Positions 12,256 to 60,160 of a stretch of DNA of 62,457 bases are shown piece by piece (the stretch's first letter is position 1; every line of letters begins with the position of its first letter). The notes under the pieces were generated by a model that was given only the letters and a program-made list of their open reading frames with translations, had not been told where the DNA came from and searched no databases. The position numbers and the translations under genes are program-made. This stretch comes from Nemertoderma westbladi. Lineage: Eukaryota > Animalia > Xenacoelomorpha. The stretch lies in the NCBI GenBank assembly GCA_032718475.1, contig JAUCBJ010007965.1, positions 1-62,457 on the forward strand. Reading direction: 5' to 3'.

Positions 12256-12266
12256 ATATCTGTTAT
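12256..12266 (-). promoter_or_regulatory. Primer-binding site of copy A (ATAACAGATAT), complementary to its own LTR rather than to a tRNA
   Basis: Abuts LTR end; plus-strand atatctgttat is the exact reverse complement of ataacagatat at 12986-12996. Confidence 0.8.
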
Positions 12267-20353: not shown

Positions 20354-21691
20354 TTAATTATCATCATCTTCTTCTTCGTCACCAAAGTCTCCATCTTCAT
20401 CGACTGTCGCATCCTGGTACTGCTGGTACTCACTGATCAGATCTTGCATGTTACTGGCAGCCTCGGTAAACTCCATCTCGTCCATACCTTCCCCGGTGTA
20501 CCAATGAAGGAAAGCCTTTCGGCGGAACATTGCTGTGAAATGCTCATTGACCCGTTTAAACAGCTCCTGGATGGAGGTAGTGTTGCCAATAAATGTTGAT
20601 GACATTCTAAGTCCTCGAGGAGCGATGTCGCAGACTGCTGTCTTTATATTGTTAGGGATCCACTCTACAAAGTAGCTACTGTTCTTATTTTGAATGTTGA
20701 GGATTTGATCATCAACCTCTTTCATTGACATTCTTCCACGGAATATCGCAGCTACTGTGAGATAACGTCCATGCCGCGGGTCGCAGGCTGCCATCATGTT
20801 CTTTGCGTCGAACATCTGTTGTGTTAATTCGGCGACACTGAGTGATCGGAAGTTTTGGGCGCTGCGACTCGTAAGAGGGGCCACACCCGGCATGAAGAAA
20901 TGCAACCGAGGGAATGGAACCATATTAACTGCGAGTTTACGGAGGTCCGCATTCAACTGTCCCGGGAAGCGAAGACATGTGGTGACCCCAGACATGGTTG
21001 TGGAGACGAGATGGTTTAGGTCACCGTAGGTTGGGGTCGTTAGTTTAAGAGTGCGGAAGCAGATGTCATAGAGTGCCTCATTATCTATGCAGTAGGTTTC
21101 ATCCGTGTTTTCTACTAGTTGATGGACCGATAGAGTTGCATTGTAAGGCTCGACCACGGTGTCTGATACCTTCGGGGATGGGACCACAGAGAAGGTGCAC
21201 ATTATCCTGTCGGGGAATTCCTCCCGTATCTTGCTGATTATTAGTGTGCCCATTCCGGATCCGGTTCCACCTCCTAGAGAATGGGTCAGTTGGAATCCCT
21301 GAAGACAATCGCAACCTTCTGATTCCTTCCGTATCACTTCTATAACTGTGTCAACCAACTCTGCTCCTTCTGTGTAATGGCCTTTTGCCCAGTTGTTTCC
21401 GGCGCCGCTCTGTCCGAAGACGAAGTTATCCGGACGGAATATGCTCCCAACTGGTCCTCCTTTTATGGCATCCATAGTTCCCGGCTCAAGGTCGACTAAC
21501 ACGGCCCTGGGAACGTACTTGCCACCCGAGGCCTCGGTGTAGTAAACATTGATTCGTTCCAACTGCAAGTCCGAGTCGCCATGGTAATTCCCTGCTGAAT
21601 CGATTCCATGCTCGTCGGAAATTACCTCCCAGAACTTCGCACCAATCTGGTTGCCACATTGACCCGCCTGGACGTGAACTATCTCTCGCAT
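20354..21691 (-). CDS. TUBB: Beta-tubulin, 445 aa, intronless CDS, divergent isotype
   Basis: MREI start, GGGTGSG GTP-binding motif, full-length colinearity with beta-tubulins, acidic tail; AATAAA at 20006-20011 (minus); likely 5'-UTR acceptor ttttatttccAG at ~21719. Confidence 0.98.
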
Positions 21692-24437: not shown

Positions 24438-27400
24438 GTCACTACAGTACTGCTGCTACAACGTCACTATTGTACTACTGCTACAACGTCACTACAGTAC
24501 TACTGCTACAACGTCACTACAGTACTACTGCTACAACGTCACCACAGTACTACTGCTACAACGTCATTACAGTACTACTGCTACAACGTCACTACAGTAC
24601 TACTGCTACAACGTCACTACCGTACTACTGCTACAACGTCACTACCGTACTACTGCTACAACGTCACTACAGTGCTACTGCTACAACGTCACTACAGTAC
24701 TACTGCTACAACGTCACTACAGTACTACTGCTACAACGTCACTACAGTACTACTGCTACAACGTCACTGCAGTACTACTGCTACAACGTCACTACAGTAC
24801 TACTGCTACAACGTCACTACAGTACTACTGCTACAACGTCACTACAGTACTACTGCTACAACGTCACTACAGTACTACTGCTACAACGTCACTGCAGTAC
24901 TACTGCTACAACGTCACTACAGTACTACTGCTACAACGTCATTACAGTACTACTGATACAACGTCACTACAGTACTACTGCTACAACGTCACTACAGTAC
25001 TACTGCTACAACGTCACTACAGTACTACTGCTACAACGTCATTACAGTACTACTGCTACAACGTCACTGCAGTACTACTGCTACAAAGTCACTACAGTAC
25101 TACTGCTACAACGTCATTACAGTACTACTGATACAACGTCATTACAGTACTACTGCTACAACGTCATTACAGTACTACTGCTACAACGTCACTGCAGTAC
25201 TACTGCTACAACGTCACTACAGTACTACTGCTACAACGTCATTACAGTACTACTGCTACAACGTCACTACAGTACTACTGCTGCAACGTCATTACAGTAC
25301 TACTGATACAACGTCACTACAGTACTACTGCTACAACGTCACTACAGTACTACTGCTACAACGTCACTACAGTACTACTTCTACAGCGTCATTACAGTAC
25401 TACTGCTACAACGTCACTACAGTACTACTGCTACAACGTCACTACAGTACTACTGCTACAACGTCACTACAGTACTACTGCTACAACGTCACTACCGTAC
25501 TACTGCTACAACGTCACTACAGTACTAATGCTACAACGTCACTACAGTACTACTGCTACAACGTCACTACAGTACTACTGCTACAACGTCACTACAGTAC
25601 TACTGCTACAACGTCACTGCATTACTACTGCTACAACATCACTACAGTACTACTGCTACAACGTCACTACAGTACTACTGCTACAACGTCACTACAGTAC
25701 TGCTGCTACAACGTCACTTCCGTACTACTGCTACAACGTCACTACAGTACTACTGCTACAGCGTCACTACAATACTACTGCTACAACGTCACTACAGTAC
25801 TACTGCTACAACGTCACTACCGTACTACTGCTACAACGTCACTACAGTGCTACTGCTACAACGTCACTACAGTACTACTGCTACAACGTCACTACAGTAC
25901 TACTGCTACAACGTCACTACAGTACTACTGCTACAACGTCACTGCAGTACTACTGCTACAACGTCACTACAGTACTACTGCTACAACGTCACTACAGTAC
26001 TACTGCTACAACGTCACTACAGTACTACTGCTACAACGTCACTACAGTACTACTGCTACAACGTCACTACAGTACTACTGCTACAACGTCACTACAGTAC
26101 TACTGCTACAACGTCACTACAGTACTACTGCTACAACGTCACTACAGTACTCCTGCTACAACGTCACTACAGTACTACTGCTACAACGTCACTACAGTAC
26201 TACTGCTACAACGTCACTGCAGTACTACTGCTACAACGTCACTACCGTACTTCTGCTACAACGTCATTACAGTACTACTGCTACAACGTCATTACAGTAC
26301 TACTGCTACAACGTCACTACAGTACTACTGCTACAACGTCACTACAGTACTACTGCTACAACGTCACTGCAGTACTACTGCTACAACGTCACTACAGTAC
26401 TACTGCTACAACGTCACTACAGTACTACTGCTACAACGTCACTACCGTACTTCTGCTACAACGTCATTACAGTACTACTGCTACAACGTCATTACAGTAC
26501 TACTGCTACAACGTCACTACAGTACTACTGCTACAACGTCACTACAGTACTACTGCTACAACGTCACTACAGTACTACTGCTACAACGTCACTACAGTAC
26601 TACTGCTACAACGTCACTACAGTACTACTGCTACAACGTCACTACAGTACTACTGCTACAACGTCACTACAGTACTACTGCTACAACGTCACTACAGTAC
26701 TACTGCTACAACGTCACTACAGTACTACTGCTACAACGTCACTACAATACTACTGCTACAACGTCACTACAATACTACTGCTACAACGTCACTACAGTAC
26801 TACTGCTACAACGTCACTACAGTGCTACTGCTACAACGTAACTACAGTACTACTGCTACAACGTCACTACAGTACTACTGCTACAACGTCACTACAGTAC
26901 TACTGCTACAACGTCACTACAGTACTACTGCTACAACGTCACTGCAGTACTACTGCTACAACGTCACTACAGTACTACTGCTACAACGTCAATACCGTAC
27001 TACTGCTACAACGTCACTGCAGTACTACTGCTACAACGTCACTACAGTACTACTGCTACAACGTCATTACAGTACTACTGCTATAACGTCACTACAGTAC
27101 TACTGCTACAACGTCACTACAGTACTACTGCTACAACGTCACTACAGTACTACTGCTACAACGTCACTACAGTACTACTGCTACAACGTCACTACAGTAC
27201 TACTGCTACAACGTCACTACAGTACTACTGCTACAACGTCACCGCAGTACTACTGCTACAACGTCACTACAGTACTACTGCTACAACGTCACTACAGTAC
27301 TACTGCTACAACGTCATTACAGTACTACTGCTACAACGTCACTGCAGTACTACTGCTACAACGTCACTACAGTACTACTGCTACAACGTCAATATCGTAC

Positions 27401-27486
27401 TACTGCTACAACGTCACTACAGTACTACTGCTACAACGTCACTACAGTACTACTGCTACAACGTCACTACCGTACTGCTGCTACAA
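24438..27486. repeat. 25-bp satellite, ~120 copies
   Basis: Unit actacagtactactgctacaacgtc; long ORFs here are artefacts. Confidence 0.98.
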
Positions 27487-27666: not shown

Positions 27667-28227
27667 CGGCCCTTTGCCTTCGGGGCAAATTGGCTTTAAT
27701 TGGTCATATTGGCTCCAGGTAGGGTTGAAAACCAGATTTCCAGTTAGGTTTAGGGTTGAAGACACTTTTTTTGTAGGGTTTTGAAAGGGTGCCCCTAACC
27801 AGGGCCATAGACAGACCTTCTAACATTTGGTGGTGAAGTGAGCCGTTTTTGGTGGAAAGCGAGTTAATTTGGTGCAAAAAGGTAATTGCAGTAGGTGTGC
27901 AGATAACTTGTTGCGGTTTTATTTTAGATTCTAAAAATATTATGTATTAAATGATGATAAATTATGTCATATAATTTCACACTTACAATGCTGTACATTG
28001 AATAGAACTTAATTGTAATAAAGTAATTTGTCAGACAAATTAAAGTGCACCCCCCAGTAAAAAGTAATTGCTACAAGTATACACTATTTATGTATGTTGG
28101 ATTAATTACTGTTCAAGTTTCCTGTTTCTTTATTGGTCTGACTAATTAATTCGATATTAAACAATATTTTAAACTTAAATACGGAAACTGTTACACAACA
28201 CTAACAACACTCTGTTTAATTAGAAAT

Positions 28228-28298
28228 ATGTTGTTACCAATCACACTCCTTGCTATTCTCTCTGTATGTATGGCAGCGCAGAGGCCTATAACTGATAC
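28228..28298 (+). CDS. Candidate signal-peptide exon of the micro-exon gene (MLLPITLLAILSVCMAAQRPITD)
   Basis: ATG, hydrophobic run, small residues at a plausible cleavage site, then donor GTGAGT at 28299 (phase 2). Confidence 0.5.
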
Positions 28299-28383
28299 GT
28301 GAGTATGAGTGCATACATACTTATCTTACGAGCTTAGTTCAGTTATTCAATGAAGAAAGAAAAGAAACATAATATACTAACAG

Positions 28384-28448
28384 TGCGCGACAAAATATTT
28401 CTGATCAAAGTACAACTTTTCTTATAGCTAATATCGTAATGCTGAATG
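28384..28448 (+). CDS. Candidate exon (65 nt, phase 2 to 1; alternative acceptor gives a 21-nt phase-1 exon 28428-28448)
   Basis: Acceptors ctaacAG (28383) or ttttcttatAG (28427); donor G|GTAAGA at 28449; frame open and joins the signal-peptide exon to the downstream phase-1 exons. Confidence 0.42.
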
Positions 28449-28517
28449 GTAAGATATGACATTGCCATCTAGCTAACACAAACATGCAATATGGGTGGGA
28501 TAGACTTTTGATAAATC

Positions 28518-28692
28518 CTTTACCAATCTGATTTAAATAATTGAACGAAAGACTAACTCATAGATACAAAAACATTTACCAATGTGATTAAAATAATTGA
28601 ACGAAAGACTAACTCATAGATACAAAAACCTATACCAATGTGATTAAAATAATTGAACGAAAGACTAACTCGCATAGATACAAAAACCTTTA
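28518..28692. repeat. 56-bp tandem repeat x3
   Basis: taccaatgtgattaaaataattgaacgaaagactaactcatagatacaaaaac repeated. Confidence 0.88.
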
Positions 28693-30323
28693 CTCGGATT
28701 TGAAACTTGGGTTTATTCAGCCATTCGATGAATGATTCTATCATAAAATGCTCGATGTTAATATTCTGCTCTTTGGTATAGTATGCCAGCCAATAGGTAT
28801 CCTTTGTGTAGCTGTGTACCGCCGTCAGTCGATCGTACAAATTGATATCCATTTATTTTCTACTTTTTATGTCCAAATCTTTCCTCCATCCCACGTAAAA
28901 TACTTGCATCGATCTCTCAGCTTCTGTTTCACAATCCAGATGTTGACCACATAGTAATTAGGCACCTAATGAGATAAACGATACAACAGTCAATTAAATA
29001 ATCTTTAATATTGATCCTATTTGGTATCCGTTATATGGTTATCAGATGAAAACCTTTTGGAAGCCTTTTGGCTGATCAATGAATTTTACAATTACTTACA
29101 GTACCGGTAGTAATAATTATAGCTCCTAATATTGTAAACCAGAGGGGCAATTAAATTGGATTTTATTTCCACAGAATGTCACATTGATTTGATTGTAAAG
29201 TTATAAGGTTAATGGAAAGTTAAATTGTTTGATTCTATGTGAACTAATCATTGTTAGAAATAAAAATAAATAAAGTTAAACACATTTTTAGTATTTCTGA
29301 TATCTAATGAGTGGCTATCTGTATCTCCAACAATGTTATTTGCAATAGTTTCAGCAATTTTCTTTGTAATCTCAATCAGAAGCGTTGAATCAGAACTGCC
29401 TCCCCCTCTGCCAGTCCCCCTTCCCACGTTACCAGGGCCACCGCGGCCACCATTTGTTTTCCCCACATCACTACCCCCAGGTTAGAAGATAACTTCATAC
29501 AATTTAACCACAGTTGGTAGGCCCACAGATATATCGGTATGTCAATGTTGGGAACCGGTAAACGTAATGTAATATAATATTTGAATATTAAAAGTAATAT
29601 AACTTCCGCGCCACTCAATATTGAATGACATTTTTCGTCGGGCGCATTAGATGTGGGATCCCCGTCACGGCAAAGACTCTGCTTGTGTTGGGGGGGGGGG
29701 GGGGGGGGGTGGGGGTGGGGAATGACCTTGGGTCATGGGGGGGCATTGGTTGATCCCAATCTGCCTGGCCAGGTCATATACCCCTGCAGCCAAGTATATG
29801 GGTCCTTAATCCAGGATCAAGGGCGTCCTTATCCCAGAACGAAGGGGGTCCTAGTTACAGGACCAGCTTTGCCCTAGTAAGAGGGTCTATGCAGCTACAG
29901 GTGGCACCCCTTTATGCTGCATGGAGGTGGCTAGTTTTCTAGATCACTGACCTTGATGAATTGACCTGACCTGGACCCGTAGGGGCGGGGTGTTACATCC
30001 TGGTCGGCAATGCGGCTTCCACAATGAGCACCGGGTCCTTCTTTCAAAAACAACGAGGGACTCTACCAGATGGTTCAAGGTCCCTAGATTATTTAATTAA
30101 CTTTAATTCAATTAATTGGAGTTGTTGAACGGTGCGTTTAATCTAATCATTTAAATCTACGATTTAGAAATATCATATTTTTTGAATTTTGAAATTTACA
30201 AAAGAATCTTTCGTGTACATTTTTGGTTGAATATTACAAACATTTTGTCAGTTATCATTATACATTATACTGGTTGTAGTTCACTGAATTATTATGCTTA
30301 ATCAATAATTGATATATTTGCAG

Positions 30324-30359
30324 GCAGTAACGATGGTGAATGCATGTGTCCATGCGAAT
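30324..30359 (+). CDS. 36-nt phase-1 micro-exon (G)[11 protein letters not shown]
   Basis: atatttgcAG acceptor, GTAAGT donor at 30360, length divisible by 3, open frame. Confidence 0.72.
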
Positions 30360-30393
30360 GTAAGTATTCATGTTTTACCATTGTTACATGTAA

Positions 30394-31037
<644 letters not shown>

Positions 31038-31459
31038 TACATACTATATTCTAGTACAGATTTGTCAGTAGAACACTACCTATGGTATCAAGAGAGCTCA
31101 GAGAAGTGGTAACAGCTAGGCTAGGGCTATACTGTATAGAGAGAGATAGAAGCAGTCATATAACTATGAAAGTAAAAGTATCATAAATTTCACGATAATT
31201 GCTTACACTGCGCCCGTACACCGTGTTGAGGGTATGAACTGTACAATAACACTACCATACTTACTAGATTTACTACTAAAATTATTACTAAAATTTACTA
31301 GATTTGGGCGAAACCTCAATCAACACACTTAAACAAACCATTAAACCTATTGAATTCGAGAACCGATTGATAATAAATTTTGGAAGGTTTTATTTCAATA
31401 TTAATTGATTAATAATTTCATATTTTGATAATTTTGGCTGAATATTTTGTTACTTTTAG

Positions 31460-31510
31460 GTCCAACCACTACAACAACGATACCAGAACCCACAACCACC
31501 AAAGGTGAAT
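31460..31510 (+). CDS. 51-nt phase-1 exon (C)PTTTTIPEPTTTKGE
   Basis: ttttgttacttttAG acceptor, GTAAGT donor at 31511; in-frame alternative donor GTGAAT at 31505; mucin-like Thr/Pro content. Confidence 0.75.
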
Positions 31511-31633
31511 GTAAGTTATTCTACCAATGTAAAAAATCCACTTTGATTTGTTGTGTACAAATTACCTAAGTAATTTGTAGCGTTCGTTCATTATGTAGCG
31601 TTCGCAACAGTCCGTATTTGTACTGTAGGTAGG

Positions 31634-31692
31634 CCTACCAGTCTACCTACCAGTCTACCTACCAGTCTACTTACCAGTCTACCCACCAGTCT
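31634..31692. repeat. 12-bp minisatellite x~5
   Basis: cctaccagtcta repeated. Confidence 0.85.
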
Positions 31693-32027
31693 CATTTCTA
31701 TTAATACTGTATACTGCATTGCAGCCTTCCGATGTTGTGTTGTCTAATGTGTATGGCTGAAATGAAATGAGCATGAATTCTTGTCTTTGGTGGTGGGATA
31801 GTGTTTTGGTCCAAGTTTGAAAGTTTTGAGACATAAATTGTATTATATGTATTATATTTATTAAAACTACACCCCGCTTGGGGGTGTAGTTTAAAGAAAA
31901 TATATATTTGTTAAAACATATATAATATGTTAGTAATTATTTTGTAAAGTAAATAAAGCGCCACGTCAAGAAACCAGCATGCCCATTGCTACTCGTTTCT
32001 GCTTGTAGGCCGGCCGGCATACCGCCT

Positions 32028-34150
32028 CTACTACTACTACTAGGATCGGCATGCCACATTGCAGCTGCATTTTTAAGAATGCTGTGCCGGCTTATCGACA
32101 AAATTGCACCGCCACAACTCCCTATCACCCATGACATTTGCTAGATCATCCGCATCTTCAAGGCCAGTGTCCTTTAAGATGCGTCTCAAGAAAGTCATGG
32201 GGTGTCCACCATGCTTATTCACTCCATGAGGCTGCCAAAGTACAAGATTATGCACTGGCTGGTCCTCACGGCGAAAGCAATGTCCTGCAAAGCGGAGGCG
32301 ATTTTGTTCTAGTGTCAAGCTTAGGGGAACCAATGAGACACCTCCAATGTTATATAGTGTCTGGTTGGAGATGTGTGCATTGTACTTGACACAATGAACC
32401 CGGCGTAGCATTCTTGTGAATGTGCCATCCAGAGATTTGGTGTCCTCAGCAGTTAGAGCCCAGCATGGACTCCCATAGAGGAGTACTGGAACTACTGCTG
32501 CTCTAAATAATCGGACCTTAAGTTTCCGATTAATTCTCGGTGACTTCCAAATCCTGGAAAGCCTATTCAAGGCTGCCAATGCCTTTCCCTTACGTATTCG
32601 AAGGTCCTCACCTGACTTCCGGATCCATGATCCCAGGTAACAGAAGTCATCCACATGCTCAAGCATACCATCTTTTGAGCTTATGCTCATCCGATCAGAG
32701 ACTTGCTGAGGACTTTCAAAGTTAACTGTCAAATTTTTGGTCTTTCTGGAGTTAATAAAAAGACCAACACTAGAAGCAGCATGTTCTAATGAGCTGAGGA
32801 GACGTTGGGCTCCCTCTAGTGATTCTGAGAGTACTCCTAAGTCATCAGCAAAGTCTAGATCAGTTAGGTACTTGGCAGGATTTCCTCGACTTCTGGAGCC
32901 AGTAGGTGGAGTTATCATCACCCCATCATCATTATGATGATCTAAGGACATGCGTAGAACATAGTCAACAACAATTATGAACAAGAATGGTGCAAGTGTG
33001 TCTCCATGGAGGACGCGCCATAACACTTCAAATGGTTCTGTGTCACCATCAACAGTAGACACAAATGTTGTCGAACCATCATTTACTGATCTGATTGCTG
33101 CAATAATTTCATCAGGAATCCCATATAATGAAAGTATGCTGAACATACGTGAGCGAGAGACTGAATCAAAGGCCTTGAAGAAGTCAACAAAGATAACAGC
33201 CAGATGCCTGTCTTTCTTTTTTGATAACTCTTCAATTATCCTTCTAAGTGCCAAAATGGGCTCCATGGTCCCACGACCTTTACGGAACCCATTCTGATTT
33301 CCACGGAGCAGTCTCTCAATGGGATCCCTGATGCGATTTAATATAATTCTATTTTATAGCTTTGCAGCAATCGAGATCAATGAGATTCCCCGAAAAGAAC
33401 CATAGAGTGTTAGGTTGCCCTTCTTGGGAACTGGCACCAACTTATTTGTTTTCATTTCTTGTGGGACTCTTGTTGTTCGGTACATGTCTACTATGATGGG
33501 ATATATGAGCTTTAAACACTCAGGTATTTAAAAGACCTCAGGGGGAACACCATTTACTCCACTGGCACGATTGGTCTTAATGCTCTTTGCAGCAGCCTTC
33601 ACCTCTGCAAAGGAGATATCACCAATGGGAATATCTGGGAGTACAGACTCAGACACTTTTACTTCTATAAAGTTATCAGGCAATACCCTGTCATTATTGA
33701 GAAGCTTTTCAATGTGGGCCTTCCAACCATTGAGGCGATCGGCTGGTGATTCAGCCTTAACCTTGGTGGTTGGTTGGCTTTTCCACCCAGTAAGCAAGTT
33801 GATCGATTTCCATGCCTGGGATGATTGCCTGCTGTCGTCAGCATCATTAATGGCGTCAACCTGTTGGTTTATTAGCTCCTGTAGATTAACAGAGTACTGC
33901 CGGTTCAGGGACCTAGATGCAGCCTTAACTGCATTCTTGGCCGCTGTAGTCTGTTTGAGTCGGGACTCTTTCTGCGCCTTGTAGAGGTCATTTCGGCACT
34001 TCTGAATTTTGTTGTCAGTCCAGGGGGCCCGTTTCCTGTTTCGAGGGTATACGGGGAACTGTTTCTGCAGCTGCTAACTTAACTGCCTCTGTGAAGGCAG
34101 TATAGCCCTCACAGTGATCTGCCGCCTCAGAGGCAAGAACCTCTGAGGGA
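32028..34150 (-). mobile_element. 5'-truncated, disrupted RTE-like LINE, copy 2 (RT ORF 32073-33266 plus upstream fragments)
   Basis: GFRKGRGT, FVDFFKAFDSV, GDTLAPFLF and LDFADD motifs; (TAG)n tail at 32028-32043; stops/frameshifts upstream of 33300; no endonuclease domain seen. Confidence 0.92.
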
Positions 34151-36920
34151 CGTAGTGGGACGTAGCATGCCCATTGCTTCTCGTTTCTGCTTGTAAGCCG
34201 GCATACCGACTCCACAATGTGGGACGTAGCATGCCCATTGCTACTCGTTTCTGCTTGTAGGCCGGCCGGCATATCGACTCCACAATGTGGGACGTAGCAT
34301 GCCCAATGCTACTCGTTTCTGCTTGTAGGCCGGCATACCGACTCCACAATGTGGGACGTAGCATGCCCATTGCTACTCGTTTCTGCTTGTAGGCCGGCCG
34401 GCATACCGACTCCACAATGTGGGACGTAGCATGCCCAATGCTACTCGTTTCTGCTTGTAGGCCGGCATACCGACTCCACAATGTGGGACGTAGCATGCCC
34501 AATGCTACTCGTTTCTGCTTGTAGGCCTGCATACCGACTCCACAATGTGGGACGTAGCATGCCCATTGCTACTCGTTTAAATGTGGGACGTAGCATGCCC
34601 AATGCTACACGTTTCTGCTTGTAGGCCGGCCGGCATACCGACTCCACAATGTGGGACGTAGCATGCCCATTGCTACTCGTTTCTGCTTGTAGGCCGGCCG
34701 GCATACCGACTCCACAATGTGGGACGTAGCATGCCCAATGCTACTCGTTTCTGCTTGTAGGCCGGCATACCGACTCCACAATGTGGGACGTAGCATGCCC
34801 AATGCTACTCGTTTCTGCTTGTAGGCCTGCATACCGACTCCACAATGTGGGACGTAGCATGCCCATTGCTACTCGTTTAAATGTGGGACGTAGCATGCCC
34901 AATGCTACACGTTTCTGCTTGTAGGCCGGCCGGCATACCGACTCCACAATGTGGGACGTAGCATGCCCATTGCTACTCGTTTCTGCTTGTAGGCCGGCAT
35001 ACCGACTCCACAATGTGGGACGTAGCATGCCCAATGCTACTCGTTTCTGTTTGTAGGCCGGCATACCGACTCCACAATGTGGGACGTAGCATGCCCAATT
35101 CTACTCGTTTCTGCTCGTAGGCCGGCATACCGACTCCACAATGTGGGATGTAGCATGACCAATGCTACTCGTTTCTGCTTGTAGGCCTGCATACCGACTC
35201 CACAATGTGGGACGTAGCATGCCCATTGCTACTCGTTTAAATGTGGGACGTAGCATGCCCAATGCTACACGTTTCTGCTTGTAGGCCGGCATACCGACTC
35301 CACAATGTGGGACGTAGCATGCCCATTGCTACTCGTTTCTGCTTGTAGGCCTGCATACCGACTCCACAATGTGGGACGTAGCATGCCCATTGCTACTCGT
35401 TTCTGCTTGTAGGCCGGCCGGAATACCGACTCCACAATGTGGGACGTAACATGCCCATTGCTACTCGTTTCTGCTTGTAGGCCGGCCTGCATACCGACTC
35501 CACAATGTGGGACATAGCATGCCCATTGCTACTCGTTTCTGCTTGTAGGCCGGCCGGCATACCGACTCCACAATGTGGAACGTAACATGCCCATTGCTAC
35601 TCGCTTCTGCTTGTAGGCTGGCCTGCATACCGACTCCACAATGTGGAAAGTAGCATGCCCATTGCTACTCGTTTCTGCTTGTAGGCCGGCCTGCATACCG
35701 ACTCCACAATGTGGGACGTAGCATGCCCATTGCTACTCGTTTCTGCTTGTAGGCCGGCATACCGACTCCACAATGTGGGACGTAGCATGCCCATTGCTTC
35801 TCGTTTCTGCTTGTAGGCCGGCCGTCATACCGACTCCATGATGTGGGATGTAGCATGCCCATTGCTACTCGTTTCTGCTTGTAGCCCGGCCGGCATACCG
35901 ACTCCACAATGTGGGATGTAGCATGCCCATTGCTACTCGTTTCTGCTTGTAGGCCGGCCGGCATACCAACTCCACAATGTGGGACGTAGCATTCCAATTG
36001 CTACTCATTTCTGCTTGTAGGCCGGCATACCGACTCCACAATGTGGGACGTAGCATTCCAATTGCTACTCGTTTCTGCTTGTAGGCCGGCCTGCATATCG
36101 ATTCCACAATGTGGGACGTAGCATGCCCATTGCTACTCGCTTCTGCTTGTAGGCCGGCTGGCATACAGACTCCACAATGTAGGACGTAGCATGCCAATTG
36201 CTACTCATTTCTGCTTGTAGGCCGGCATACCGACTCCACAATGTGGGACGTAGCATGCCCATTGCTACTCGTTTCTGCTTGTAGGCCGGCCGGCATACCA
36301 ACTCCACAATGTGGGACGTAGCATTCCAATTGCTACTCGTTTCTGCTTGTAGGCCGGCCTGCATATCGATTCCACAATGTGGGACGTAGCATGCCCATTG
36401 CTACTCGTTTCTGCTTGTAGGCCGGCTGGCATACAGACTCCACAATGTAGGACGTAGCATGCCAATTGCTACTCATTTCTGCTTGTAGGCCGGCATACCG
36501 ACTCCACAATGTGGGACGTAGCATGCCCATTGCTACTCGTTTCTGCTTGTAGGCCGGCCGGCATACCAACTCCACAATGTGGGACGTAGCATTCCAATTG
36601 CTACTCGTTTCTGCTTGTAGGCCGGCCTGCATATCGATTCCACAATGTGGGACGTAGCATGCCCATTGCTACTCGTTTCAGCTTGTAGGCCGGCCGGCAT
36701 ACCGACTCCACAATGTGGGACGTAGCATTCCAATTGCTACTCATTTCTGTTTGTAGGCCGGCATACCGACTCCACAATGTGGGACGTAGCATGCCCATTG
36801 CTACTCGTTTCTGCTTGTAGGCCGGCCTGCATACCGACTCCACAATGTGGGACGTAGCATGCCCATTGCTACTCGTTTCTGCTTGTAGGCCGGCCGGCAT
36901 ACCGACTCCACAATGTGGGC
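34148..36920. repeat. 64/68-bp GC-rich satellite, ~42 copies, with higher-order duplications
   Basis: Unit gggacgtagcatgcccattgctactcgtttctgcttgtaggccggc(cggc)ataccgactccacaatgt; a block repeats at a 300-bp offset (34441 vs 34741). Confidence 0.97.
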
Positions 36921-37026
36921 CGTGAGTAGTGACTAGAAGCAGAAGATGCCTCAACTTATTTAATACGTTTTATTGCTCCAAACATTTCCTCTCATGTTTT
37001 TTCTAGCCTTTTGGTTTATTTTGCAG

Positions 37027-37050
37027 GCGAAGACACGCCGACATCTACCC
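37027..37050 (+). CDS. 24-nt phase-1 micro-exon (C)EDTPTST
   Basis: ttttggtttattttgcAG acceptor, GTAAGT donor at 37051, length divisible by 3. Confidence 0.72.
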
Positions 37051-37385
37051 GTAAGTGTCAAACAAATTAGTTCTATACTATTAAATATCCCAAAATTACT
37101 GTTCACGTAAGGACTGTCATTGTTTTTATTTATTTGTATCGAATTAATTTCGCACTGCCAAATCGCCAGGGCGACATATTTTCCAACTTTACATCGCAGT
37201 GCGACATTATTTCTCAGATGTCCCTACACCATACAGTTTACTATGTATTTCTAGTATATCCAGTATGTCACCGCGTCATTATTAGGTTGTTCTATGAAGT
37301 TTAAGTGCAATACTACAAATAATTCCCCACAAATAAATAAAATATGATTCGCCATTGTTCATATTTAGCACATTAAAGCTTTTAC

Positions 37386-40300
37386 GGTAGCTAGTGTTTT
37401 TTTGGTAGCTAGTGTTTTTTGGTAGCTAGTGTTTTTTTTGTAACTAGTGTTTTTTTGGTAGCTAGTTTTTTTTTGGTAGCTAGTGTTTTTTTGGTAGCTA
37501 GTGTTTTTTTGGGAGCTAGTGTTTTTTTGGTAGCTAGTGTTTTTTTTGGTAGCTAGTGTTTTTTTGGGAGCTAGTGTTTTTTTGGTAGCTAGTGTTTTTT
37601 TTGGTAGCTAGTTTTTTTTGGTAGCTAGTGTTTTTTTGGTAGCTAGTGTTTTTTAGGGAGCTAATGTTTTTTTGGTAGCTAGTGTTTTTTTTGGTAGCTA
37701 GTTTTTTTTGGTAGCTAGTGTTGTTTTGGTAGCTAGTGTTTTTTGGTAGCTAGTGTTTTTTGGTAGCTAGTGTTCTTTTGGTAGCTAGTGTTTTTTTGGT
37801 AGCTAGTGTTTTTTTGGTAGCTAGTTATTTTTTGGTAGCTAGTGTTTTTTTGGTAGCTAGTGTTTTTTTGGTAGCTAGTTATTTTTTGGTAGCTAGTGTT
37901 TTTTTGGTAGCTAGTGTTTTTTTTGGGAGCTAGTGTTTTTTGGTAGCTAGTGTTTTTTTGGTAGCTAGTGTTTTTTTTGGGAGCTAGTGTTTTTTGGTAG
38001 CTAGTTATTTTTTGGTAGCTAGTGTTTTTTTTGTAGCTAGTGTTTTTTTGGTAGCTAGTGTTTTTTTGGTAGCTAGTTTTTTTTGGTAGCTAGTGTTTTT
38101 TTGGGAGCTAATGTTTTTTTGGTAGCTAGTGTTTTTTTTGGTAGCTAGTTTTTTCGGTAGCTAGTGTTTTTTTGGTAGCTAGTGTTTTTTGGTAGCTAGT
38201 GTTTTTTTGGTAGCTAGTGTTTTTTTGGTAGCTAGTTATTTTTTGGTAGCTAGTGTTTTTTTGGTAGCTAGTGTTTTTTTTGGGAGCTAGTGTTTTTTGG
38301 TAGCTAGTGTTTTTTTGGTAGCTAGTGTTTTTTTGGGAGCTAGTGTTTTTTGGTAGCTAGTTATTTTTTGGTAGCTAGTGTTTTTTTTGTAGCTAGTGTT
38401 TTTTTGGTAGCTAGTGTTTTTTTGGTAGCTAGTTTTTTTTGGTAGCTAGTGTTTTTTTGGGAGCTAATGTTTTTTTGGTAGCTAGTGTTTTTTTTGGTAG
38501 CTAGTTTTTTTTTGGTAGCTAGTGTTTTTTTTGGGAGCTAGTGTTTTTTGGTAGCTGGTTATTTTTTGGTAGCTAGTGTTTTTTTTGTAGCTAGTGTTTT
38601 TTTGGTAGCTAGTGTTTTTTTGGTAGCTAGTTTTTTTTGGTAGCTAGTGTTTTTTTGGGAGCTAATGTTTTTTTGGTAGCTAGTGTTTTTTTTGGTAGCT
38701 AGTTTTTTTTGGTAGCTAGTGTTTTTTTGGTAGCTAGTGTTTTTTGGTAGCTAGTGTTTTTTTGGTAGCTAGTGTTTTTTTGGTAGCTAGTTATTTTTTG
38801 GTAGCTAGTGTTCTTTTGGTAGCTAGTGTTTTTTTGGGAGCTAATGTTTTTTTGGTAGCTAGTGTTTTTTTTGGTAGCTAGTTTTTTTTGGTAGCTAGTG
38901 TTTTTTTGGTAGCTAGTGTTTTTTGGTAGCTAGTGTTTTTTGGTAGCTAGTGTTCTTTTGGTAGCTAGTGTTTTTTTGGTAGCTAGTTATTTTTTTGGTA
39001 GCTAGTGTTTTTTTGGTAGCTAGTGTTTTTTTGGGAGCTAGTGTTTTTTTGGTCGCTAGTGTTTATTTGGTAGCTAGTTTTTTTTGGTAGCTAGTGTTTT
39101 TTTGGGAGCTAATGTTTTTTTGGTAGCTAGTGTTTTTTTTGGTAGCTAGTTTTTTTTGGTAGCTAGTGTTTTTTTGGTAGCTAGTGTTTTTTGGTAGCTA
39201 GTGTTTTTTGGTAGCTAGTGTTCTTTTGGTAGCTAGTGTTTTTTTGGTAGCTAGTTATTTTTTGGTAGCTAGTGTTTTTTTGGAAGCTAGTGTTTTTTTG
39301 GTAGCTAGTGTTTTTTTGGGAGCTAGTGTTTTTTTGGTCGCTAGAGTTTATTTGGTAGCTAGTTTTTTTTTGGTAGCTAGTGTTTTTTTGGTATCTAGTT
39401 TTTATTTGGCAGCTAGTGTTTTTTTGGTAGCTAGTGTTTTTTTGGTAGCTAGTGTTTTTTTGGTAGCTAGTGTTTTTTTGGTAGCTAGTTTTTTTTGGTA
39501 GCTAGTGTTTTTTTGGTAGCTAGTGTTTTTTTGGTAACTAGTGTTTTTTTGGTAGCTAGTGTTTTTTTGGTAGCTAGTGTTTTTTTGGTAGCTAGTGTAT
39601 TTTTGGTAGCTAGTTTTTTTTTGGTAGCTAGTGTTTTTTTGGTATCTAGTTTTTATTTGGCAGCTAGTGTTTTTATGGTAGCTAGTTTTTTTTTGGTAGC
39701 TAGTGTTTTTTTGGTAACTAGTGTTTTTTTGGTAGCTAGTTTTTTTTTGGTAGCTAGTGTTTTTTTGGTAGCTAGTGTTTTTTTGGGAGCTAGTGTTTTT
39801 TTGGTAGCTAGTGTTTTTTTTGGTAGCTAGTGTTTTTTTGGGAGCTAGTGTTTTTTTGGTAGCTAGTGTTTTTTTTGGTAGCTAGTTTTTTTTGGTAGCT
39901 AGTGTTTTTTTGGTAGCTAGTGTTTTTTGGTAGCTATTGTTTTTTTGGTAGCTAGTGTTTTTTTGGTAGCTAGTGTTTTTTTGGTAGCTAGTGTTTTTTT
40001 GGTAGCTAGTGTTTTTTTGGGAGCTAATGTTTTTTTGGTAGCTAGTGTTTTTTTTGGTAGCTAGTTTTTTTTGGTAGCTAGTGTTGTTTTGGTAGCTAGT
40101 GTTTTTTGGTAGCTAGTGTTTTTTGGTAGCTAGTGTTCTTTTGGTAGCTAGTGTTTTTTTGGTAGCTAGTTATTTTTTGGTAGCTAGTGTTTTTTTGGTA
40201 GCTAGTGTTTTTTTGGTAGCTAGTTATTTTTTGGTAGCTAGTGTTTTTTTGGTAGCTAGTGTTTTTTTGGGAGCTAGTGTTTTTTGGTAGCTATAGTGTT

Positions 40301-41192
40301 TTTTTGGTAGCTAGTGTTTTTGGGATAGCTAGTGTTTTTTTGGTAGCTAGTGTTTTTTTGGGAGCTAATGTTTTTTTGGTAGCTAGTGTTTTTTTTGGTA
40401 GCTAGTGTTTTTTGGTAGCTAGTGTTTTTTGGTAGCTAGTGTTCTTTTGGTAGCTAGTGTTTTTTTGGTAGCTAGTTATTTTTTGGTAGCTATAGTGTTT
40501 TTTTGGTAGCTAGTGTTTTTGGGATAGCTAGTGTTTTTTTGGTAGCTAGTGTTTTTTTGGGAGCTAATGTTTTTTTGGTAGCTAGTGTTTTTTTTGGTAG
40601 CTAGTTTTTTTTGGTAGCTAGTGTTTTTTTGGTAGCTAGTGTTTTTTGGTAGCTAGTGTTTTTTGGTAGCTAGTGTTCTTTTGGTAGCTAGTGTTTTTTT
40701 GGTAGCTAGTTATTTTTTGGTAGCTAGTGTTTTTTTGGTAGCTAGTGTTATTTTGGTAGCTAGTGTTTTTTTGGGAGCTAGTGTTTTTTTGGTCGCTAGT
40801 GTTTATTTGGTAGCTAGTTTTTTTTTGGTAGCTAGTGTTTTTTTGGTATCTAGTTTTTATTTGGCAGCTAGTGTTTTTTTGGTAGCTAGTGTTTTTTTGG
40901 TAGCTAGTGTTTTTTTGGTAGCTAGTGTTTTTTTGGTAGCTAGTTTTTTTTGGTAGCTAGTGTTTTTTTGGTAGCTAGTGTTTTTTTGGTAACTAGTGTT
41001 TTTTTGGTAGCTAGTGTTTTTTTGGTAGCTAGTGTTTTTTTGGTAGCTAGTGTATTTTTGGTAGCTAGTTTTTTTTTGGTAGCTAGTGTTTTTTTGGTAT
41101 CTAGTTTTTATTTGGCAGCTAGTGTTTTTTTGGTAGCTAGTGTTTTTTTGGTAGCTAGTGTTTTTTTGTTAGCTAGTTTTTTTTTGGTAGCT
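37386..41192. repeat. 17-19-bp satellite (ggtagctagtgttttttt)n, ~3.8 kb
   Basis: Direct reading; block duplication (39208 region recurs at 40663). Confidence 0.98.
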
Positions 41193-41193
41193 G

Positions 41194-43143
41194 GCTCATT
41201 CCATGAAAAGGTCAACCTCCCCACTAATTTCTAAAAATGAGATGTAGCTTTGAATTTATACTTATTTTAGGTCAAAATCTATCGTACTTCATGAATTCAG
41301 TGCTAAAAATTGTATCAACACAGGTGGTTTATCAAAAATAGTCGAATTACAAATTATGCACCTGCTCTGCACAAAATGTGAATAAAAGTGTGCAAAAGTT
41401 TCGTTTCCTGTAGGCACTTCCTATGACCAATAAATTAACATTTCTGAGCATGTACCAAATCAAAAACAAACCCATTTTCGAATTTTTTTGGTTTCATTTA
41501 ATTTCACCAGTGTTTCGTTCCTCTGTAATGAAATCGATAAAGTTTAATCATGTGATGTCCCATACTTTACCTAAAATAGTGAAATTTTTAGTTTATTCAC
41601 AGAGATGTAACTCAGCCTATTCACCCAGTGGAATGCAAAGCACGTTTGTGTTGCGTCATCGTATAAAACAATTAGTTTCATCTTCACTCCCTCAGAAATA
41701 TCATGGCGGCCAATTAAAAATTGTCCCATACTTTACCATCAAAATGGCGATTATATTAGTGCACTGTATTAATGTAATATGTGAAGCCATGAGTGTTATA
41801 ATACTCTAAGGTCATAATCGGCCGTAAGAATAGGAGTCTATATTTGAACTGAGAATCACTCCTCAGTCAATAAATCCTTGGGTTTATGCATGTAAAGTCC
41901 CATACTTTACCAAAAAATAGTGAAATTTTTAATTTATACACAGAGAAGTAGTCTAACTAAGCCCAATCACCCAGTGGAATGCAAAGCAGGTTTGTGTTGC
42001 GTCATCTTAAGAAACAATAACCTGTAGTTTCATAATCTACTCCCTCAGAAACATCATAACGGCCAATTGAAAATTGTCCCATACTTTACCATTATAATGG
42101 CGATTACATTAGTGCACTGTATTAATGTAATATATGAAACCTGGAGGGCAGGAGTGTTATAATGCTTTAGGGTGATAGTAGGGGGAAGCATAGAAGTATG
42201 TATTTGAACTAAGAATCATTCCTCAATTAACTAATCTTTGAGTTTATGCATGTAAAGTCCCGTACTTTACAACAAATTTCAAAAAATTTAGTTTTTTAGC
42301 AGATAAGAAGATCGGTAAGTACAGTAATTGATACATTTTCAGAAAAATGGAAAGAAATTCTAAACTTTTTACAGACTACATACCAAGTTTGGTTATATTT
42401 CATAAATGATTGGCGGACTTATTTCGGTTTTTATCAAAATTTTGAAATTATCGGTAACCAACAGACAGACTGTCTGATATGTGACCTTTGATTCCTTAAA
42501 CTTCAGATTCTTTCCAAACTTTTGACGGACTTCATACGTACCAGGTTTGGTTTAATTTCATCTAAAAATGACCGAGATATACAGTATTAGCGATCAAAAA
42601 TTAGACAGATGACATACAACTCATAAGGGCACCCATATGCTAAGACTTCGGGTCAATTTGTGGGCCGCCCCACATTTTGTATCCATATCTTGGTTGGAAA
42701 TACTTAGTTGCACTTTATTATCACTAATTATCCAGAAATTACTGTTAGGTTAAGTGTAAGAGACCATTTTGACCATAAAATTCGTACAGGTCCCGTACTT
42801 TACTTAGCAATGTCCCATACTTTACCACACAAACCACACTGTAAAAAATTAGCAATGCAGCAATTCGTCTTATATTTATATTTTTATTTAAGCTTAATAA
42901 TACAGCTTTATCCTAAACATCAACTCAATACCGTACCTGCGCACAATTCGCTAAATTTTAGAATTTAAATCAAAAATTAAAAAATACCATTTCGTACGAA
43001 TCCGTACTTTACCTTAATTGGACAAGCTAGCGTTTTCTCAAAAGTGACTAAGTCCCGCCATAAGCTTCGCGAAATCAAAGCTGATATTCCAAAGTTTAAT
43101 CCAAGCACAATTTTGTGCACATATGTGCTGTGGATAACATTGT
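41194..43143. mobile_element. Probable non-autonomous DNA-transposon arm with a recurring motif and a ~350-bp internal duplication; interrupted by copy B
   Basis: gtccc[a/g]tacttta recurs about 8 times; 41557-41896 is duplicated at 41897-42270; no credible ORF; no matching second terminus seen in the window. Confidence 0.5.
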
Positions 43144-44343
43144 TGTTCGCGCTTTTAGACCTTTAGCAGTTTAACCTGCCAAATTTAGGTGTCTTCTAGG
43201 TTATAAATCGACTTTAGCCTATAACAAGTGTTTGATACACATAAAGCTACATTAGCCGAAGCCAGCCTATGCGCGATCATTCACCCACGGTTAAGGGAGA
43301 CTGGATTCGGAAGCTCTGACCTTATTGCGGTGTAGACTTACTGTACTATTCGATTGATCGTTAATATATAATCTCTGACAAATATTATTCACTTTCGGGA
43401 AATATTAACAGTTCCTTTAGGACGTGGCGCTCTAAGTATGTAAACAGAGTTATGACTTACACTAAACACAACGGGATGGCTAATGATTTACGTATAAAGC
43501 GCATTCTTTAGGAAATGCTTTGTTATCTATCACACTCATGCACACTACCGCACAATGCTGCACACTGATCTGCCGACCTTCACTAATTTTAATCATATAT
43601 AAGGAGAACAGCAACTGACACATGTAGGGTCTATGAAATAGCATTCAATTCACTCCAAAACCACTATAATGTAAGTCGCAATTGCTATATGTAACCGGTC
43701 TCTCTAACCTTCAGTATATCAAGAAGATTGGGGTTTTCTGATTATTTATCGATATTCTCCAAATATAATCCATCAACTGATAACAATTAATAACCGACAG
43801 TAAATATCAGTAAAATAATGCGGTGAAAGGTATGTATAGTATTTGAGTTATGAATTATGCATTGAGTTGAGTTGAGTTGTTTGAGTTGATAACAGTTATA
43901 CGTTTCTATGATCAAAGCCGTTCTAATGTTTTGCTAAAGTCTGAAACACAGAATAATTCCACAGACGATGTTCTGGGCTCAGGAAAAAAGGTAACCAAAG
44001 ACCATAATGCATTGCGCGATTTCCCGGAGGCTTCTGTACAAATAAAATGAAAATCGCTCTGATTGGTCGAGTGAGAGAGCCTGAACAAAGAAAGCCAAAA
44101 GCTCCACATCGACATATCAGCTGATAGATGTCGTCATCTGAACTACACTGTATTAAGAGTATTTTGGCGCATTGCGGCATAAAATTGCTTGTTATGTCTG
44201 CTAAAGTACACATACAGAAAAAATGGCTTTTTATGTCCACTAAAACACCTACACAGTAAGAAAACGGCTTTTTATGTCCGCTAAAACACCTACAGAGTAC
44301 TTTGTGGGAAAAATGACTAGCTAGATCCGCAAAAGCCTTTACA
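43144..44343 (-). repeat. 3' LTR of copy B (1200 bp, TGT...ACA)
   Basis: Element strand TGTAAAGGCTTTTGCG...AAAAGCGCGAACA; colinear with 12267-13435. Confidence 0.9.
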
Positions 44344-44351
44344 CCGCTCCC
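44344..44351 (-). promoter_or_regulatory. Short polypurine tract GGGAGCGG
   Basis: Directly precedes the TG of the 3' LTR on the element strand. Confidence 0.65.
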
Positions 44352-44876
44352 AGAAAATGGGATTTAATTCTATAAAATATAAAAAATCACAGTTTCTAAA
44401 ATATAAAAATACTCTAAACAGTTAGTCTTTCTTGCGAGGACGGCGTTTACGCAGTTTTTTGAGGCTAGCAAAAGTCCTTTTCTCTTTGGGGCGAGCCACT
44501 TTACTAGGAGGGCTATAACTCCTGGGTGAAGGGTGCAATACAATTGCATCGGAAGGTTTGGAATTACGGTCGGTGTATCCGCCGGTTGAGGTACCCGTTG
44601 ATTGGTATTAGCCTAAGTAGAACGAGGTCGAACAACCTTAAGAGCGCGTTTTAAGACAGCAGCTCTTACTGGTCCCTGATGGGTCGTTTGCACGAGAGCG
44701 GTAGGTGGACCATGTGTAGTGAGAAATTTCCTCGGTTTGATGATTCTTTCCAACTCGCGTTCTCGGGCTCTATCGGGATCGATATGCTTCTCCTCGAGCT
44801 GATTTTCCTCCGCTTGTCGTTGAAAGCATTCGTCTAAAACTCTTTTAGAGTAGAGTCATCCAAGTTCGATATCTTC

Positions 44877-46136
44877 TTAGAGATTCTGGATTTCCTGATT
44901 GAACTGACATAAAGCTAATTCGTTTACCGCTTGGACTTGCTGCTGCAATTTACATTTCTCTAAACAATTGTAGGTTCCTTTTCCGATCTTTTGACGAATA
45001 GTGTCCAACGCGTTTCGTACAACGCTCTCCTCGACTTCAGTGACGGGTTGTATCGGGGTTAAACCAGGACGATTGTACGGGTTGAACGGCGATATTAGAT
45101 GCCCGCGTCCCAATCCGGCTAGGTAGGAAGGGCAGATATCTAGCGAGCCCACTACCGGAGTGCCACCGATTAACTGTTCGGGTAACACAAGATCTTTAAA
45201 TAGTGAGTACAGTTCAGGGGGATCCGTTATACTATTAGGATCAAGCGTTTGAGGTCTCACTAAGGAATGAGGAGGTCTGACCGAGTATTCCGGAACTCTG
45301 ATCATGGGTTTATTTAAGGATCGTATGAGCCGAGCGAGCGTAGGTGATACGTCGAACAGGTTTCGCTCGAAACTTCCATAAGTATATTGTGTAAAACTGT
45401 GTTTAGCGCAACGTCTCCGCGGATGTTTATGTCTTTCCGTTTGCTGATTGGGTCTAGGGTATTCATCGCAGTAATACCAAAGACGCACGTCCTGCAGGGG
45501 AAACGCGGGTGATCGTTCTCCAGTTTTACAATATTCCTCCATCTGTTCGAAGCTATCTGGGACGACAGGTAGCGGTCGAACGGCGGTAAGATACATCATA
45601 GTGAAATAGAGCCGTTTGAGTTCTATCATAGGGTCATGATGTATACCTTGAGGATATCGAGTTTCTAGATTTTGTTGACTGGCGATATTGTGATATGTTT
45701 CTCTCAAGAATTCCAGATAATCGTTGAAGTCGCTGCGTTTATCCGGCTCTTCAACGTCTTCTCTTTCGAGTCGGTTCCGAATAGAATTCTCGTGTTCTAT
45801 TCTCGGTTTATTGTTCCGACTCTGCTGGGTATGATATTTAAATAAAACCATTTCCCTTTCGGTGTCTATATCGTCCGTATCGTGTAAATCGATAGGATGG
45901 CCAGTAGTTAAGAAGTCCATATACGTACCATTACGATGCGTATAGCGAGCGGTGAATTTTCTATAGTCCAATTCACGCGTAAGTTGCTCCTGGGACATCG
46001 GCGGTTCGATATAATGACCATCGTCCTCCGTAGTAGTTGGACTAGCGTCGCCGCGTATTAAGCTATCAACAAACGCTTGTAAAGTTAGAGTATATCGCTC
46101 CCTGATACCAAGATCATCTTCTATCAACTCAGTCAT
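44877..46136 (-). CDS. Extra ORF of copy B in the env position, 419 aa, unknown function (degenerate extension to ~44422)
   Basis: Long non-repetitive ORF on the element strand between pol and PPT; no evident signal peptide or transmembrane segment; no domain recognised. Confidence 0.8.
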   Translation of the reverse strand: MTELIEDDLGIRERYTLTLQAFVDSLIRGDASPTTTEDDGHYIEPPMSQEQLTRELDYRKFTARYTHRNGTYMDFLTTGHPIDLHDTDDIDTEREMVLFKYHTQQSRNNKPRIEHENSIRNRLEREDVEEPDKRSDFNDYLEFLRETYHNIASQQNLETRYPQGIHHDPMIELKRLYFTMMYLTAVRPLPVVPDSFEQMEEYCKTGERSPAFPLQDVRLWYYCDEYPRPNQQTERHKHPRRRCAKHSFTQYTYGSFERNLFDVSPTLARLIRSLNKPMIRVPEYSVRPPHSLVRPQTLDPNSITDPPELYSLFKDLVLPEQLIGGTPVVGSLDICPSYLAGLGRGHLISPFNPYNRPGLTPIQPVTEVEESVVRNALDTIRQKIGKGTYNCLEKCKLQQQVQAVNELALCQFNQEIQNL

Positions 46137-47839
46137 AGCTGCTATATGAGTTTATCAATATTATAATAAGTTTATAATTAGGCTAGCGGGCGTCGCTGCC
46201 TACCCCTCACGGCCCCCGGACAGTGCAAGATCCTCAGCGCTGATGTACTGTCGCCGATGTGCCTATCGCCAACATAGTAGCTGCACAACGACAACAACAA
46301 CCAGCGCGAGTCACTCCACTGTCTGTCCCAAAGGCTTAGATTTACTTCAGGTTCTTACTGCAGAGTTAGGGCTACTTTCACAATTGCGACTCGCTACTGT
46401 AAACACACTTTAGTAGTAACATTCACCTATAAACGCACAAATTCCACACAACTGTCACAAATTGTACACATTCGGGCCATTTGTCCGTTAGTCAAGTGCC
46501 TTCCAGAATGCCACGTTATTATTATGTATCCTTGGATACTAGCAGTGTGCTATTTATTCCTTATGCTATTCAATGGGGCAAGCTTTCTATTGTTCTTTTA
46601 ACTCGCTTCTAATTCTAGCGTGGTTGTTGCTATGGTGACATTATGGAAAGCTAGCGGTAGAATTAGGGTAATTCCCATGCATACAGATCTGGGATGCTAT
46701 TTAATAGTAATTCTTTAATTGTCAATATCCCCTTTATACATGATTTTATGAATTTTATCGGCTATTGACTATATATGGGAGATTCCCGCACACTAATACA
46801 CTCAATAGGGTGAATCTCCGCTCCCATGATCTATTAATTAATTGAATTTTTGGGAATGTCATAAATTGCATAAAATGACAATTTATCAAATTCATTAAAA
46901 AGATGAATTTAAATTTATTCCTGTAAATTTTTTTATTTATCCTTAAAACAGACATAATTTTATTCCAGAGCATGTCTGGGGACTAGTATCCTTAATTCTA
47001 GGAAATTTGTCCTTTTAAGAGCATCGGTAAGTGCTACGATATCTTAATAGACTAGAATTTTAAAGGATCTAAAATTTTACAGATTTTAATTTATAGATTT
47101 TCTAGAGTTAACTTGTAAGTAGTTACTCTATTGTATCTGTTTGACAGATTTTATAAATATTAATAGTTAATATTTAAGATGGGCACCGGTTTATTCCAGA
47201 ACGTGTCTGGGGACGTTAACCACTGATTCTAGAATTTTGTCTTTCAAGTATATCGGTGGGTGCCGCGATATCTTAATTGACTAGAATTACAGATGGTCAA
47301 AGGGTTTAACAGATTTATTTTGCATTTTATGCTACTGTTAAAGGGACATCACGCTACTATATGTATTATTTAATATATGGTATGAGAGCAATATCACAAG
47401 AAGCAATGTCAGTGAGAAGAGGCAAGTCGTTTCCAAGGTCTACCCAGAGCTTGGTTTAGCCGAGACACGAGGATCTGAATTTTGCATTCCTAATACTCTA
47501 CTTACCAATAATACTTGAATATAGTAAGAGCTTTATTGTACTTTAATAAGTACGGACATTTCATCTTACTGTAGTCACGTATTTATAATGTACTACGGAC
47601 AGTAAGGAAAGAGAAAAAAGAATTATTTCTCGCCGTCGCACTAAATATATAATATATAAGTAATTAAGTAATAAGACTAATATATATTGCACTAATCTAC
47701 TAAATAATCGCTAAAATAACATTCTACTAAATAAAATTAAAGAAAACGATTATAATAAAATTACATAAAAATACATACATAAATATAAAATAATAAAAAT
47801 ATATGAAATAATATAGTCACACACCCACTCCAGACGCTG

Positions 47840-60149: not shown

Positions 60150-60160
60150 ATAATAGCTAT
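60150..60160 (+). promoter_or_regulatory. Primer-binding site of copy C (ATAATAGCTAT), complementary to its own LTR
   Basis: Abuts LTR end; exact reverse complement of atagctattat at 59319-59329. Confidence 0.8.

Follow-up and report, generated by a model that had tools for sequence, protein, structure and literature searches.

A 62,457-nucleotide (nt) contig of Nemertoderma westbladi (JAUCBJ010007965.1, assembly GCA_032718475.1), hereafter the window, was analysed over its whole length. On its plus strand, the region between 29333 and 37050 very probably holds a real, unannotated gene for a small secreted protein rich in Pro, Thr and Cys. With a probability of about 0.55, we read it as an ordinary animal gene with spliced exons; it probably starts at 29333, and its product would be a secreted protein of small size, resembling mucins or glue proteins. 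An earlier note on this DNA had already proposed that spliced exons here encode a probably secreted protein rich in Cys, Thr and Pro, and the prediction is supported by the splice architecture, the composition and a signal-peptide-like start.

Short exons and their splice sites

The proposed coding exons are listed below. Splice sites were ranked among the 350 AG and 368 GT dinucleotides in the non-satellite part of 27668-37385.

29333-29480, plus strand: proposed first coding exon of 148 nt, ending in phase 1; ATG with A at -3; donor CAG/GTTAGA
30324-30359, plus strand: symmetric exon of 36 nt; CxCxCxC motif, the last Cys being created over the junction; acceptor rank 9 of 350, donor rank 3 of 368
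31460-31510, plus strand: symmetric exon of 51 nt, Thr/Pro-rich, with a five-Thr run and a PTTTK motif; acceptor rank 8 of 350, donor rank 2 of 368
37027-37050, plus strand: symmetric exon of 24 nt, Thr/Pro/Ser; acceptor rank 1 of 350, donor rank 8 of 368; may be the start of a terminal exon

The three short exons are genuine sequence features. Exons of 36, 51 and 24 nt with an AG acceptor and a GTAAGT donor had been placed at 30324, 31460 and 37027 by the earlier note, and all of them were located there, each preceded by a T-rich AG and trailed by GTAAGT. As also claimed, their lengths are multiples of 3 and all are open in phase 1; however, they are equally open in phase 0, so that phase 1 was assigned from the join and the composition. 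Two Cys codons straddle junctions and the GEC motif is present twice, in agreement with that description, whereas the run of four Thr described in the 51-nt exon is a run of five; this exon contains eight Thr codons of four kinds. The GC contents of the three exons were 0.47, 0.47 and 0.62, against 0.25, 0.15 and 0.33 in the respective upstream flanks.

In 6482 nt of non-satellite sequence, each of the three GTAAGT sites marks the end of an exon of 12-81 nt that is symmetric and open in phase 1. When this test was repeated on local dinucleotide shuffles (n = 2000), one such exon was observed in 42 shuffles and two or more in none. The acceptor cut-off had been chosen after the scores were known and was hence swept from 1 to 3.5, which gave 3 units in 4639 nt versus 3-5 in the other 93,673 nt, both strands being counted. 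The latter units, together with the lack of any homolog found and a span that is about 72% repeat, are what could be expected if the exons were chance matches or the remains of a dead gene. Against this, two such units never arose in the 2000 shuffles, the frames and splice motifs are all intact and the composition is coherent across the four exons, and we consider chance or gene death exceedingly improbable.

Candidate first exons

The exon at 29333-29480 had been overlooked in the earlier note and was found among the open reading frames (ORFs) between 28384-28448 and the first short exon. By a crude hydropathy and (-3,-1) rule, its first ~20 residues are signal-peptide-like, and they are followed by a proline-rich tract in which Pro is encoded 14 times, each of its four codons being used. 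The best GC-rich segment obtained by maximum likelihood within 29100-29620 was 29396-29481, the right edge of which lies on the 29480 donor; this donor ranked 6 of 368 when exonic bases were included. Fifteen signal-peptide-like ATG ORFs were counted in the window, three of them with a donor inside the ORF, and the two of these on the plus strand are those at 28228 and 29333. Shuffling of 27668-30323 (n = 1000) yielded at least one signal-peptide-like ORF with a donor in 20 cases and two in 1 case. The exon 29333-29480 connects directly to 30324 in phase 1, and no weak site is used for this connection.

Two further candidate exons lie upstream.

28228-28298, plus strand: second signal-peptide-like ATG exon of 71 nt, ending in phase 2, with a GTGAGT donor (hydropathy rule and splice scoring)
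28384-28448, plus strand: link exon of the earlier note, doubtful; donor at 28449 rank 4 of 368, weak acceptor

The transcript put forward in the earlier note runs from the ATG at 28228 through 28384-28448 into the three short exons, which would make 29333-29480 intronic or a part of something on the other strand. The ATG and the in-frame path do exist, the start is signal-peptide-like and the donor at 28449 is among the best ranked. However, the link exon itself is doubtful. Its acceptor is purine-rich with no pyrimidine tract and ranked only 57 of the 350 AG, and its GC content of 0.32 is intron-like, near that of its flanks (0.27 and 0.37), versus 0.44-0.62 in the other exons. In addition, a stronger acceptor at 28428 within it would define a symmetric unit of 21 nt, to which the 28298 donor does not join in frame. 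The same transcript leaves the GC-rich, Pro-coding, donor-bounded ATG ORF at 29333 unaccounted for, and we regard it as quite unlikely to be the main one. Because 29333-29480 begins with a signal-peptide-like sequence and has the right phase, no weak site being needed, the path from 28228 is probably not the principal one, and the gene probably starts at 29333 rather than at 28228.

The 28228 exon can also reach the short exons in frame via an acceptor at 29380 (rank 30) inside the 29333 exon. It may be an alternative first exon, a part of a neighbouring gene or a chance feature; it could also belong to a separate small gene ending at a pair of AATAAA motifs (29259/29265). An AG lies 4 nt upstream of the ATG at 28228. 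The AATAAA pair is followed at once by a weak acceptor, which precedes the ATG at 29333 by 41 nt. This arrangement of AATAAA, acceptor and ATG at 29259-29292 is reminiscent of operon or trans-splicing layouts and may be chance in AT-rich DNA.

Introns, possible 3' ends and surroundings

The introns of the proposed gene contain the following repeats, and one more exon-like unit was found downstream.

30394-31038, no strand assigned: hexamer microsatellite, ~108 copies, in the intron between the 36- and 51-nt exons
32028-34154, minus strand: fragment of a non-long-terminal-repeat (non-LTR) retrotransposon (long interspersed nuclear element, LINE) with RVT_1 and DUF6451, in the intron between the 51- and 24-nt exons; right boundary estimated
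34155-36923, no strand assigned: 64-68-nt satellite, in the intron after the 51-nt exon
42300-42314, plus strand: doubtful further micro-exon of 15 or 12 nt with tandem acceptors and a GTAAGT donor, at the end of a ~350-nt tandem duplication

Satellites and the LINE fragment occupy 5541 of the 7718 nt (about 72%) between 29333 and 37050, which bears out the earlier description of introns swollen by satellites and transposable elements. Within the LINE fragment, 932 nt are 98% identical to 17325-18255. One unit of the 64-68-nt satellite is present at 31976-32031, on the opposite side of the LINE, suggesting that the LINE was inserted into the satellite array. No unique islands concealed within the satellite arrays were found.

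The gene may end in one of several ways: the 24-nt exon may run on past its donor, a short exon at 37218 may be the terminal one, or the 42300/42303-42314 unit or exons past the window may follow. When the 24-nt exon was read through its donor, six further residues including a sixth Cys were obtained before a stop, and an AATAAA follows at 37332. The 42300 unit is doubted because it lies at the end of a tandem duplication and resembles a repeat piece near 46990-47085 (an equally good match was seen in 1 of 300 shuffles). Other units were rejected: those at 43411-43425 and near 43966 lie inside a repeat also found at 12263-13436, and those within the 41541-42303 duplication differ in frame between the copies.

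The three short exons might also code for an N-terminal stalk, the gene being an ordinary one of greater length with its main domains downstream, past the retrotransposons and outside the window. The consensus donor of the 24-nt exon, the lack of a convincing terminal exon within the window and the size of the introns at this locus (up to 5.5 kb) are consistent with such a gene, whereas the early stop after the sixth Cys with its AATAAA, and the possible short terminal exon at 37218, speak for an end close by. We consider the longer gene improbable.

The window as a whole is repeat-rich animal DNA with two Bel/Pao LTR elements, LINE fragments and large satellites. A 25-nt satellite at 24438-27486 (122 copies) is nearly stop-free on the plus strand and produces spurious frames of >700 codons; the long stop-free frames over this satellite and over the hexamer microsatellite were dismissed as repeat artefacts. 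The CpG observed/expected ratio was 0.45 in the LINE fragment (32028-34150), 0.60 in 27668-30393 and 0.90-0.96 in the Bel/Pao elements (2141-9041 and 44877-55640), a contrast that may reflect patchy methylation or element age. The Pol of the Bel/Pao elements is ~35% identical over its length to that of marine-invertebrate elements. Directly downstream of the Bel/Pao Pol ORF, a 424-codon open frame at 44877-46151 (minus strand) is possibly an extra ORF of the element; for this frame, no Pfam family, no homolog at E ≤ 0.001 and no Atlas match of ≥ 0.9 were found.

Several diverged copies (75-88% identical, in both orientations) of a long non-coding repeat lie beside gag-like ORFs in 8952-13436 and 43140-62450, and resemble nested Bel/Pao elements whose leaders or LTRs are very long. 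At 55644-56783, inverted arrays of a 15-nt repeat break a gag-like ORF. A motif in the inner flanks of these arrays recurs in the 18-nt satellite at 37386-41192, which may therefore derive from such an element. An intronless beta-tubulin gene at 20354-21691 (minus strand, 445 amino acids) is divergent, being at most ~88-90% identical to the relatives listed, which come from many animal groups, and no identical sequence was present in the collection searched; it is possibly a retrogene or a specialised isoform.

Predicted product and comparison with known families

With the start at 29333, the best model has 86 codons up to 37050, and Pro, Thr and Ser account for 39 of the 86 residues. Five Cys follow the signal peptide up to this point, and the synonymous codons of Pro and Thr are mixed. 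In the predicted chain, the signal peptide and a Pro-rich arm come first, then the CxCxCxC cluster and the Thr/Pro stalk, and lastly one more Cys. In the proposed mechanism, the first exon would supply the signal peptide and a stiff proline-rich arm, and the short phase-1 exons would contribute the Cys cluster, the stalk, which is probably O-glycosylated, and one more Cys. After export, the protein would be cross-linked by disulfide bonds into a mucus, adhesive or matrix layer. The short symmetric exons would be explained by the protein being a disordered extracellular chain, and the introns would have grown through satellite expansion and LINE insertion. Secretion, O-glycosylation and disulfide cross-linking are what we infer by analogy with the group-1 glue proteins of Drosophila and with Thr/Ser/Pro-rich micro-exon genes (MEGs); likewise, we infer the splicing, the start site and a mostly constitutive mode of splicing.

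Database searches with parts of the product gave the following. In Pfam, six exon-sized peptides yielded one weak match (E 0.2) for one of them and none for the others; the region of the Cys exon had no usable match in the ESM Atlas, and the 50-residue ORF of the first exon had none among PDB sequences. A phmmer search with the same ORF against 1.84 billion representatives returned a single match (E 4.6e-4, 24 residues), a 244-residue protein without the Cys/Thr module, which was rejected as compositional. Among metagenome contigs, the 71-residue ORF at 29270-29482 gave 594 pattern matches, none of which was confirmed. A scan with a degenerate Cys motif found 17 loci, none matching the window by blastn and none with a mucin-like context; the best of them (L010) seemed to be a chance match inside another animal gene. 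Rfam and ARAGORN gave no matches, and no paralogue of the gene was found within the window.

Several points weigh against an ordinary gene that starts at 29333 and encodes a mucin- or glue-like protein. Every exon junction is a prediction from the sequence, and both the splice matrices and the signal-peptide rule are approximations that we built on general consensus patterns instead of using trained models. The 29480 donor (GTTAGA) is weak on its intronic bases alone (score -0.09), and the GTTAG donor pattern was put into the scan with this site already known. The minus strand of 29254-29481 is also open and Gly/Arg-rich; an antisense shadow of the Pro codons would produce such an opening, a genuine minus-strand fragment being the alternative. 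Homologs of single exons were not found, the queries being short and of low power and the spliced product not being among them. A long tandem Pro/Thr/Ser repeat, typical of true mucins, was not found either; the exons that were found hold two short Thr runs. Finally, given several possible 3' ends, the exons found may encode just the first part of a protein of greater length.

Among known systems, the Drosophila group-1 glue proteins (Sgs1, Sgs3, Sgs4 and Eig71Ee) are described in a part of PMC9409817 as having a signal peptide, Pro/Thr/Ser tracts and several Cys, with a PTTTK region in Sgs3. The predicted product has in common with them the signal peptide, the Pro/Thr/Ser chain and multiple Cys, and PTTTK also occurs in the 51-nt exon. 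The Sgs1/3/7/8/Eig71Ee group shares one intron near residue 10 according to the same source, versus micro-exons here. The likeness is an analogy only. The mucin-like secreted protein SmPoMuc of Schistosoma mansoni is built from short exons with microsatellites in the introns, as predicted here; the relevant part of PMC2576457 gives 15 exons averaging 60 bp and a 27-bp exon repeated with its introns in 1-kb tandem units. Unlike in SmPoMuc, no significant duplication of exon plus intron was detected. The 36- and 51-nt exons were considered as duplicates and rejected, since their likeness is due to the shared donor consensus and that of the intron-only part was not significant (matched in 50 of 300 shuffles).

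The earlier note had likened the gene to the MEGs of schistosomes. The layout is similar. In the platyhelminth MEGs (Schistosoma MEG-4/-8/-15 type; Hymenolepis and Echinococcus), as portrayed in parts of PMC4671649 and PMC4350168, a long signal-peptide exon is followed by short symmetric exons, the protein is small and Thr/Ser/Pro-rich, and the introns are transposon-rich, as here. The signal peptide of MEGs resides mostly in the long 5' exon (an excerpt of PMC4671649), and by our crude rule 29333-29480 carries such a sequence, as does the 28228 exon; there are also several internal exons of <70 nt divisible by 3 (36, 51 and 24 nt). However, only three short exons were found here, one of them of 51 nt, the likeness is one of layout only, and nothing seen in the window points to a flatworm host.

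The published numbers were not reached. An excerpt of PMC7653826 sets a minimum of 7 exons, with 4 or more micro-exons in an unbroken row, and one of PMC5825161 assigns ~80% of the coding sequence to symmetric exons 6-36 bp long. Within the window, our best model has 4 exons and a run of 3 micro-exons, and the three short exons make up 111 of its 259 coding nt (43%), those of ≤36 nt 60 of 259 (23%); in the model of the earlier note the short exons make up 111 of 247 nt (45%). Class 1-1 exon symmetry is typical of extracellular animal proteins (PMC8001218, in part) and also of disordered proteins (PMC3632108, in part). Since symmetric phase-1 exons are therefore expected in such proteins, symmetry alone is no evidence of diversification. 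The gene is not shown to be a MEG; it may act somewhat like a small one.

One form of such behaviour would be a gene in which 28228 and 29333 serve as alternative first exons, each with a signal peptide, and the symmetric cassettes can be skipped. It would give a few secreted isoforms that differ in N-terminus and Cys number, much as in a schistosome MEG but on a smaller scale. The two donor-bearing, signal-peptide-like exons do lie 1.1 kb apart (a pair seen in 1 of 1000 shuffles), each reaches the short exons in frame, all skipping combinations stay in frame with an altered Cys count, and the layout of a long 5' signal-peptide exon followed by Thr/Ser/Pro-rich micro-exons is that outlined for MEGs in a part of PMC4671649. 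On the other hand, just three cassettes were found, one of them of 51 nt, and no paralogue is present within the window; the consensus GTAAGT donors on all three suggest constitutive inclusion, and the keeping of frame upon skipping is a consequence of symmetry alone. This alternative appears unlikely. Decidedly speculative is a MEG-like diversifying gene, possibly in a non-flatworm lineage that lacks close relatives in protein collections, in which the two first exons would feed skippable phase-1 cassettes and, through the junction Cys codons, every choice of splicing would alter the Cys count and so tune the cross-linking of glue or mucus; additional cassettes may lie past the window. MEGs "appear to be restricted to platyhelminths" in the available text of PMC4350168, and crude word searches of the literature for MEG-like genes outside flatworms returned nothing on point, which does not imply their absence from print.

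An ordinary spliced gene for a small secreted protein, our preferred reading, would be an orphan that escapes ORF-based annotation, from an animal lineage that is sparse in protein databases. Its value would lie in annotation and in a candidate mucus or adhesive component, and such a gene would not be surprising. If combinatorial skipping and two first exons were true in a non-flatworm, MEG-type diversification would be extended past the parasites in which it was described, and it would become possible to test whether this diversification arose for immune evasion or for the tuning of secreted polymers.

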